Shown piece by piece: positions 12,780 to 13,778 of a stretch of DNA of 64,000 bases. Below the pieces are notes generated by a model. That model was not told the DNA's origin. It ran no database searches and worked only from the letters and a program-made list of their open reading frames with translations. This DNA is from Candidatus Poribacteria bacterium (GTDB lineage Bacteria; Poribacteria; WGA-4E; PCPOR2b), in the NCBI GenBank assembly GCA_965198175.1, contig OZ240245.1:384001-448000 (forward strand), in the 5' to 3' direction. How positions within the stretch are numbered: the stretch's first letter is position 1; every line of letters starts with the position of its first letter. The translations under genes were made by a program, and so were the position numbers.

Positions 12780-13778
12780 GTGCCAACAGGACGAATAAAA
12801 TATTACAACCCAGACAAAGGTTTTGGATTTATCGCTCAAGACAACGGCGAAGCCGATGTTTTTTTGCACGTCTCTGCAATTAACTGGGTGGACGACGAGC
12901 TTGGAGCGGGACAACGGGTCAAATACGATATTACCGAGGGCAAGCGGGGACTTGTGGCTCGAAACGTTGAGGTCTTACTCACCCAACTTGAGCAAAAGTG
13001 GCTTCGTCAAGGCAAGGTGATTATCCCTCGTGATTACCCAAGGTTCACTTCGCGAGAGCAAAGCAAAACCTATGATGAGGGCAAATCGAATTTGTCTCAA
13101 CAGCCAATTCGACCAGCATCAGTTGTATCGTCGAATTCGCAGACATCGGAACAATCTGTTGAGCTACCGCCTTCCAGACCGGACGTTGAACCGCATGATT
13201 TCGAGCCGACCGAAAAAGATAATCCGAATCAGAAGTTAGTAGCATCAACTGCTCAGTCTGAATCTAGCCGCAAGAAACCCGAACATGTTACTTTTGGCAA
13301 TCTATACATACAAAAACAGATACGGCTCCAAACATCAATGATTTTTGGGCTGTACAATCACGAGCAGCGCTCTAGTACGATTCGCGAATTCACCCAATAC
13401 ACTTTTACGCTGCAAGGAGAAGAAGAAAACCAAGAAATTCCGAAAACGCAAGTTAAATACTGTTATAAAGCTGAAGACGCGGAAGCAGTGCAGGCGCTCA
13501 TGCGATACGATGAGGAAATCAGATCGCAAGAATTAAAGTCGATTGTGTCTCGGAAGAAACGTTACCAAATCGACACGCGAGAAATTCAGCTGGCGTGTAA
13601 GGAAGAATACCCAATCGAAGTAATTATGCACGAGGGGGAGATTTTTCGAGGAATGGTGGATTGGGTCAGCCCATACGAGATTAAGATGGTTTTAGAAAAC
13701 GGATCGAAAGTTGTTGTTTTCCGGCATGCCATCTGCAAATTTCAGGCATTTCCATCTGAAAAACAAAGGGGTGATTAA
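12780..13778 (+). CDS. Cold-shock-domain protein with low-complexity linker and two Hfq/Sm-like domains
   Basis: CSD RNP1 KGFGFI and RNP2 VFLHVSAI. C-terminal PIEVIMHEGEIFRGMV...VVFRHAI aligns by eye with Hfq [16 protein letters not shown]...MVYKHAI. Confidence 0.8.
   Translation: MPTGRIKYYNPDKGFGFIAQDNGEADVFLHVSAINWVDDELGAGQRVKYDITEGKRGLVARNVEVLLTQLEQKWLRQGKVIIPRDYPRFTSREQSKTYDEGKSNLSQQPIRPASVVSSNSQTSEQSVELPPSRPDVEPHDFEPTEKDNPNQKLVASTAQSESSRKKPEHVTFGNLYIQKQIRLQTSMIFGLYNHEQRSSTIREFTQYTFTLQGEEENQEIPKTQVKYCYKAEDAEAVQALMRYDEEIRSQELKSIVSRKKRYQIDTREIQLACKEEYPIEVIMHEGEIFRGMVDWVSPYEIKMVLENGSKVVVFRHAICKFQAFPSEKQRGD

Follow-up and report, generated by a model that had tools for sequence, protein, structure and literature searches.

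What might a bacterial protein do that joins, in a single chain, a cold-shock domain (CSD) to two copies of an Hfq-like Sm fold, and could it take the part of Hfq in the bacteria that encode it? The question is raised by a gene for a protein of 332 amino acids (aa) in a 64,000-nucleotide stretch of DNA from a Candidatus Poribacteria bacterium (GenBank assembly GCA_965198175.1, contig OZ240245.1, positions 384,001 to 448,000 of the forward strand), the whole of which is termed the window. The original prediction, made from the letters alone, had read one open reading frame (ORF) at 12780..13778 on the plus strand and had divided its product into a CSD, a linker and two Sm/Hfq-like units. That frame holds, with no other long ORF overlapping it, and the architecture is upheld by independent lines of evidence for both units. 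Here we report that the C-terminal part is an internally duplicated Hfq-like module, hereafter the double-Sm module, which belongs to a wider, unnamed family with varied fusions. On balance, we favor the view that the protein is a bipartite RNA-binding chaperone or regulator, in which a flexible tether links a CSD to two Hfq-like Sm domains held rigidly together.

The segment VFRHAI of unit 2 is, by alignment, the counterpart of VYKHAI in Caulobacter Hfq and of VFKHAI in M. jannaschii Hfq. Unit 2 scored 27.1 bits against Pfam Hfq_1 (PF21979), marginally above the cut-off of 27, rising to 29.3 bits when the C-terminal part was searched alone, and it reached 27.9 against the NCBIfam model Hfq_rel_Cyano, the cut-off of which is 52. 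As a single sequence, its best match among solved structures was Anabaena Hfq (3hfn), with an E-value of 0.0084. A profile built from 40 short members of the family matched 37 distinct solved Hfq-type sequences at E<=0.001, the lowest value being 1.3e-7, and all of these matches fell on the unit 2 part. In the AlphaFold2 (AF2) model, unit 2 consists of a helix and five strands, with a predicted local distance difference test score (pLDDT) of about 90. Unit 2, already called Hfq-like at 13569-13745 in the original prediction, is a true, divergent Hfq homolog, as borne out by the Hfq_1 score and the family profile. Codon 273 (13596..13598), which lies in the unit 2 helix, encodes Cys in the window and Arg in at least 90% of the 38 homologs that we aligned; in the alignment to Caulobacter Hfq it falls on the Arg in '...SVRKSK'.

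Unit 1 gave no match to the family hidden Markov models of Pfam and NCBIfam. In the AF2 model computed from the 38-sequence alignment, it folds into a helix (residues 172-182) followed by five strands (residues 186-230) at a pLDDT of about 90. A separate AF2 model of residues 166-262, computed from 16 sequences of the window and the Poribacteria loci, has the same fold at a pLDDT of 82.3. Comparing the unit 1 model with 48,161 representative chains by VIA-align revealed that the top seven matches are all bacterial Hfq, with Z-scores of 10.7-11.4 and root-mean-square deviations (rmsd) of 1.2-2.9 over 60-68 residues; archaeal and eukaryotic Sm/LSm proteins follow at Z-scores of 7-9. In Foldseek, all 27 matches listed (ranks 1-50) are Hfq, the best being 4nl3_A at an E-value of 1.1e-4. 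When the whole model was submitted to VIA-align against the same chains, Hfq aligned to residues 170-233, and none of the best 50 matches listed covers both Sm units. The profile of unit 1 against solved sequences had S. aureus Hfq as its best match, at a non-significant E-value of 0.095.

The two units were also compared directly, using an alignment of 128 modules from the relatives found with the C-terminal 168 aa, which is likewise the basis of the residue counts given below. The unit 1 and unit 2 profiles matched in hhalign with a probability of 96.8% and an E-value of 2.4e-10, with 54 columns in register. Among 22 controls, the E-values were 0.014 and 0.0046 for reversed profiles and no lower than 7.7e-4 in 20 column shuffles; the CSD profile reached 0.5 with unit 1 and 0.084 with unit 2. 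Limited to Poribacteria sequences, the comparison of the two units yielded a non-significant E-value of 0.18, so the signal needs the broad family alignment. In the relative P0186, the first unit is itself recognized by Pfam Hfq (33.5 bits, over the cut-off), and the second by Hfq_1. The profile match and P0186 together indicate that the two units arose by internal duplication of an Hfq-like domain. The alignment of both units to Hfq had originally been made by eye, with unit 1 placed at 13293-13470 as Sm-like; the hhalign match and the resemblance of the unit 1 model to Hfq now substantiate both claims. In some homologs (P0076, P0084, P0090, P0095 and P0111), strands 3 and 4 of unit 1 are separated by an additional 9-29 aa.

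The residues kept in each unit point to the places where nucleotides would bind. When the two units are aligned with each other, Y207 falls opposite Y299, K222 opposite R315 and T223 opposite H316. Y299, R315 and H316 in turn align with the Phe, Lys and His of Caulobacter Hfq that make up its proximal uridine pocket (E. coli F42, K56 and H57). Among the 128 modules, Y207 is found in 112 and K222 in 119, both in unit 1; in unit 2, conservation is seen at G286 (127), G291 (122), H316 (120), L269 (110) and R315 (105), and position 299 is Tyr in 84 and Phe in 28. At the level of sequence, both units thus keep the aromatic and basic residues of a putative pocket, with the His retained in unit 2 alone. 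The segment between the units (residues 233-263) is 31 aa long in all 38 sequences and carries R261 in 120/128 modules, P254 in 96/128 and D244 in 95/128. Its fixed length and conserved residues suggest that the two domains are held in a fixed geometry.

At the N-terminus, the original prediction had assigned residues 1-66 to a CSD, and Pfam indeed places this domain on residues 3-64. A profile of the 38 homologs matched E. coli CspA (1mjc) in the CSD at an E-value of 4.8e-19. In the AF2 model, five strands at residues 3-65 form an OB-type barrel, which Foldseek superimposed on the solved cold-shock protein (Csp) 8xyf_B with a TMt of 0.93 and an rmsd of 1.3. The translation contains KGFGFI at residues 13-18 and VFLHV at residues 27-31, which we take to be the RNP1 (K-G-F/Y-G-F-I) and RNP2 (V-F-x-H) motifs, and G16, F17, I18 and F28 are invariant in 38/38 homologs. 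Scores against the NCBI equivalog models are far under their cut-offs (64.7 versus 120 for CspE); the protein is thus a CSD protein rather than an ortholog of a named Csp.

The CSD is followed by a segment that the original prediction had described as a linker of about 100 aa rich in Ser, Pro, Glu and Gln. The composition holds, as these four residues make up 40 of the 81 positions from 87 to 167, but the description missed that the first 20 aa are a conserved extension of fixed length. In this extension, L67, E71, Q77, G78, K79, I82, P83 and R84 are invariant in 38/38 sequences, the length is always 20 aa and the net charge ranges from +2 to +4. AF2 places a helix at residues 69-76 within it, and in the VIA-align search with the whole model the alignments of Lin28 and CRHSP-24 chains include it, ending at residues 84-89. 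In our reading of these sequences, the basic extension may enlarge the binding surface of the CSD. Its motif recurs in only three of the 12 CSD-bearing relatives that were aligned (P0026, P0124 and P0141) and partly in P0127; the named members of the P0124 and P0141 clusters are Poribacteria. The remainder has a pLDDT below 50 (over residues 84-167), and across the 38 homologs the linker varies in length from 43 to 109 aa and in charge from -8 to +17. We read it as a flexible tether with no conserved charge pattern. Because of this range of charge, we rejected as a general feature an acidic linker that would mimic nucleic acid, an idea prompted by the title of PMC5606850 on the Hfq C-terminal domain.

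Table 1. Features of the gene and its surroundings, in window coordinates.
Feature	Coordinates	Strand	Basis or remark
Whole gene	12780..13778	+	332 aa, stop included; CSD and two tandem Hfq-like units
Cold-shock domain, aa 3-64	12786..12971	+	Pfam CSD (PF00313), E 4.1e-19, 68.7 bits (cut-off 27)
Conserved basic extension after the CSD, aa 67-86	12978..13037	+	LLTxLEQKxLRQGKxxIPR; 38-sequence alignment
Variable disordered linker, aa 87-167	13038..13280	+	Ser/Pro/Glu/Gln-rich
Sm/Hfq-like unit 1, divergent copy, aa 172-231	13293..13472	+	AF2, VIA-align, Foldseek, hhalign
Connector between the units, aa 232-263	13473..13568	+	Helices; conserved D244, P254, R261
Sm/Hfq-like unit 2, aa 264-323	13569..13748	+	Sm2-type motif F314-R315-H316-A317-I318
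Ribosome-binding site region before the GTG start	12762..12779	+	GAGAGGAAAC; kept in 4/4 genomes of the genus
YkgJ-type Cys-cluster gene (CxxCxxCC)	13813..14445	+	Pfam CxxCxxCC, 20.2 bits, under the cut-off of 23
GBBH-like_N (DUF971) gene	14480..14800	-	Found in 14/17 Poribacteria loci
4Fe-4S ferredoxin gene	14917..15174	-	ORF under the 100-aa cut-off of the locus comparison

The distribution of the architecture, which the original prediction had left to be checked, proved to be near-universal in Poribacteria. A search with the full protein gave 406 matches at E<=0.001. The 120 homologs listed are 294-377 aa long, share 46-93% identity over 97-100% coverage and, where named, come from Candidatus Poribacteria; all 120 have a CSD hit, and 14 have Hfq or Hfq_1 as well. 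At the same threshold, the gene was matched in 171/176 Poribacteria genomes, including 133/133 of high quality; most of the listed matches are full-length, and some may cover the CSD only. The five genomes with no match are 61-88% complete. In a collection of species-level genomes, the best 80 loci comprise 17 full-length copies (15 from Poribacteria and 2 labeled 'uncultured bacterium') and 63 that match in the CSD only. In one genome-bin locus (L019 6546-6551), the gene copy is split into two frames near codon 190, through either a frameshift or an assembly error.

When the C-terminal 168 aa were searched alone, the module turned out to extend well beyond this fusion. This search gave 229 cluster representatives (50% identity) at E<=0.001, of which 69 reach E<=1e-10, and the complete double module is present in 124 of the best 150 of the 229. 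Comparing 81 representatives with Pfam revealed an N-terminal CSD in 11, HTH_3 in four and, in one each, HEAT repeats, GmrSD_N, a weak ParB_N and a borderline DnaJ_C; many other relatives are stand-alone proteins of about 170 aa. Hfq or Hfq_1 is matched at E<=0.01 in 57/81 members, and Pfam Hfq at E<=1 in 33/40 short members. One CSD-bearing member is labeled as a Pseudomonadota genome bin, and one stand-alone member was named 'sRNA-binding regulator protein Hfq' by its source. Since the curated models match weakly and only in the second half, much of the 229-cluster family is likely unannotated or labeled simply as cold-shock protein.

Several relatives combine the module in other ways. P0127, P0129, P0128 and P0232 join it to a C-terminal XRE-type HTH_3 domain, and P0127 and P0129 have an N-terminal CSD as well. 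Two giant proteins, P0240 (1142 aa) and P0286 (1298 aa), contain four and five double-Sm modules, that is, 8-10 Sm domains per chain, and Poribacteria also have frames of 1150-1430 aa that are giant relatives. P0240 begins with a nuclease domain of the GmrSD type, a possible sign that the module has been put to use in defence. FljA (Flag1_repress, PF03614), raised by an Atlas feature search at 0.91, was rejected: the protein gave no match at E<=10, and only 1/40 family members matched, with an E-value of 0.094.

The source genome, a single contig of 4.92 Mb that is 94.8% complete, gave no match to Pfam Hfq, LSM, CsrA or ProQ, and in a search with Hfq_1 only the CSD-double-Sm gene scored over the cut-off. 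Besides this fusion gene, the genome has one ordinary small Csp, in a 76-aa frame. Searching it with the module profile revealed one paralog of 218 aa at C1:2282748-2283419 (-) (L003 1480..2136 (-)), which has, where the CSD would be, an Arg/Ser-rich basic tail of about 65 aa. The presence of such a tail on the same module supports a nucleic-acid-binding role. The paralog adjoins a short-chain dehydrogenase gene and a DUF1232 gene. Across the phylum, Pfam Hfq matches occur in 97/176 Poribacteria genomes, mostly in frames of 160-330 aa or of more than 800 aa, with few of 80-104 aa. Judging from this gene content, the protein and its paralogs probably take the Hfq role in Poribacteria, the genomes of which mostly have no Hfq of canonical size. 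Near-universal in a phylum of uncultured sponge symbionts, and encoded in a genome with no Hfq, ProQ or CsrA match, the protein is an obvious candidate for post-transcriptional control.

These results lead us to propose a putative model for the protein. The CSD, together with its basic extension, would bind single-stranded RNA and open it up, and the Hfq-type pockets of the double-Sm module would bind RNA as well. The Sm pair may assemble into a closed ring whose domains are even in number and whose pockets are of two alternating kinds. The ring would then hold the RNA as the tethered CSDs keep adjacent structure open. In Hfq, the nucleotide pockets are formed between adjacent subunits of the ring. 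A closed ring with alternating pockets is favored because pocket residues are conserved in both units and pockets of this type lie between subunits; being built from pairs, it would hold six or eight domains. The simplest such ring would be a trimer, with six domains, and a tetramer, with eight, would also be possible; the trimer, which the original prediction had put forward as a pseudo-hexameric ring bearing three tethered CSDs, is a tentative choice. Just as tentative is a bolder version of the model: Poribacteria would have exchanged the Hfq hexamer for a trimer in which F-R-H and P-K-T pockets alternate and which carries three CSDs on long tethers, so that the global RNA matchmaker of the phylum would both melt and pair RNAs, and the wider family would be an overlooked second Hfq lineage, reused in regulators and in GmrSD-type nucleases.

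Several observations weigh against this model or parts of it. Unit 1 has PKTQV in place of FRHAI and thus no Sm2 motif, and in Poribacteria it also has no Sm1 glycine. Unit 2 stays under the cut-offs of Pfam Hfq (PF17209; 20.5 bits versus 27) and of NCBIfam TIGR02383 (17.6 versus 61.7), and its residue aligned to the Gln that starts the Caulobacter Hfq helix, presumably Hfq Q8, is Asp. Relatives with several modules have four or five per chain, not three, and give no pointer to six domains. Such single-chain relatives were dropped as evidence for a hexamer, P0240 having four modules and P0199, with three apparent ones, grouping with the 1298-aa five-module protein. Replacement of Hfq does not extend to every Poribacteria lineage, given the other Hfq-type matches in 97/176 genomes, a few of them in frames of canonical size. 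As to expression, four metatranscriptome runs on sponges, all from one study, gave contigs that span most of the gene, 19/25 pieces having at least 99% identity, and in each of the four runs one contig bridges its stop codon and the start of the downstream ykgJ-like gene; these contigs fit expression and co-transcription of the two genes, but RNA libraries may contain DNA, and the contigs give neither transcript ends nor an expression level. Runs X5-X11, with just 5-8% of the sampled words, were not counted as evidence.

The ring itself is the point at which the most serious alternative departs from the model. The LSm domains of Edc3, Scd6 and ataxin-2 act outside rings. By analogy, the two Sm units of a chain might pack together without closing a ring, leaving a monomer or dimer that serves as a platform for binding RNA or protein. 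The 31-aa connector of fixed length with its conserved residues suggests just such a rigid intrachain pair, chains of four or five modules suit beads on a string as well as they suit rings, and the Edc3 LSm domain matches unit 1 at a Z-score of 6.7. We nevertheless consider this arrangement unlikely, as the best structural matches are the ring-forming Hfq proteins (Z-score of 11 versus 6.7) and the best-conserved positions are the pocket residues that adjacent Hfq subunits share, a pattern that makes most sense in a ring.

A second alternative concerns the ligand. Single-stranded DNA is also a ligand of CSDs, antiterminators are known among the Csp proteins, and DNA is bound by E. coli Hfq too. 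The protein might accordingly act mainly on DNA or transcription, as a nucleoid-associated protein, a single-stranded-DNA binder or an antiterminator. The relatives with HTH_3 (4/81), GmrSD_N (1/81) and a weak ParB_N (1/81) hint at DNA-linked roles of the module elsewhere, which likewise counts against the RNA-centered model, and 5uk7, titled as Hfq bound to double-stranded DNA, is among the structural matches. On the other hand, the Poribacteria protein has no DNA-binding domain besides the CSD, the Arg/Ser-rich tail of the paralog is typical of RNA binders and the Hfq-type pocket residues are conserved. A mainly DNA-directed function is therefore improbable, and the bipartite RNA-binding role remains our preferred reading.

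The genes around the fusion gene say little of RNA. A ykgJ-like gene lies directly 3' in 13/17 Poribacteria loci. In the window, 34 nt separate the stop codon (13776-13778) from its ATG at 13813, and a scan of this interval for terminator-like sites found none. The two genes are probably in the same operon; translational coupling, suggested in the original prediction, finds no support because of the 34-nt gap. Upstream lies an AMP-binding gene of the acyl-CoA-ligase type, which was not found beside the gene in the 17 other loci. Downstream, an ORF that overlaps the ferredoxin gene on the opposite strand has matches in 12/17 loci, probably reflecting the ferredoxin, and a gene for Xaa-Pro aminopeptidase follows beyond it, also on the opposite strand. 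None of the three opposite-strand genes is related to RNA. Taken together, the YkgJ-type, GBBH-like_N and ferredoxin genes suggest that the neighborhood has an iron-sulfur theme, without an evident connection to RNA. Cyanobacterial Hfq is a poor RNA binder and attaches to the pilus ATPase PilB1. That the protein is, in the same manner, a protein-protein adaptor with the YkgJ-type neighbor as partner is very unlikely: the best Pfam and NCBIfam models of unit 2 are of cyanobacterial type (Hfq_1 and Hfq_rel_Cyano), its best single-sequence match is the Anabaena Hfq and ykgJ is often adjacent, but unit 2 has F-R-H-A-I as in canonical Hfq where Anabaena Hfq has W-K-Q-A-I, the CSD fusion points to nucleic acid and adjacency is weak evidence of binding.

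The 5' end of the gene was compared within the genus. The ribosome-binding site GAGAGGA is conserved, and the start codon is GTG in two genomes and ATG in two. The conserved GAGAGGA and the ATG at the same codon in two congeneric genomes support the GTG start. Upstream conservation is confined to the vicinity of the ribosome-binding site; a promoter scan of the plus strand 5' of the gene found none, and a search of positions 10000-16000 against Rfam at E<=1 gave no match and hence no known cspA-type leader.

In the literature that we searched, which was thin on subscription journals, we found neither a CSD-Hfq fusion nor a tandem Hfq described, in keeping with the original prediction, which knew of no characterized example. 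PMC6200039 cites Sun et al. 2002 solely in connection with species that have two hfq genes. An item on FlgV, a membrane protein, that came up for Poribacteria and Hfq is unrelated. A double Hfq within a single chain would form a ring that has pockets of two kinds, as eukaryotic Sm rings do, and its fusion to a CSD would make one protein out of two classes of bacterial RNA chaperone.

Set beside known systems, the protein would act as a combination of Hfq and Csp; by the curated models it is no Hfq equivalog. Bacterial Hfq, of 70-100 aa versus 332 aa here, has been studied as a single-domain homo-hexamer. With bacterial Hfq (PF17209; 1kq1, 6gwk and 1hk9), both units share, as modeled, the Sm fold of a helix and five strands, and unit 2 shares the [F/Y]-[K/R]-H-A-I motif and the Sm1 glycine; the Poribacteria protein differs in having two Sm domains per chain, a unit 1 with no such motif, and an N-terminal CSD on a long tether. 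The cyanobacterial Hfq-related proteins (PF21979; 3hfo and 3hfn) provide the top curated match of unit 2, and 3hfo_A matches unit 1 at a Z-score of 11.1; yet they are single-domain proteins with no CSD, and the Anabaena protein departs from the F-R-H-A-I motif. With the CspA/CspE type (PF00313), the protein shares a full CSD, 40-48% identical to solved Csp proteins, but it also has the conserved 20 aa after the CSD and a further C-terminal region of about 250 aa.

In design, the closest parallel is found among eukaryotes. Lin28, the Y-box proteins and plant GRP2 are described as joining a CSD through a flexible region to a second RNA-binding module for bipartite recognition (PMC3287177, PMC6511231 and PMC11602973). 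The Poribacteria protein has the same order of CSD, tether and second module, and Lin28 chains align to residues 1-84 and 1-89; the eukaryotic proteins use CCHC zinc knuckles, so that the likeness is an analogy in which only the CSD is homologous. Eukaryotic Sm/LSm rings, for their part, are built of non-identical Sm domains, with pockets that vary around the ring. There, a hetero-heptamer is assembled from seven separate gene products, whereas here two diverged domains are encoded in one chain.

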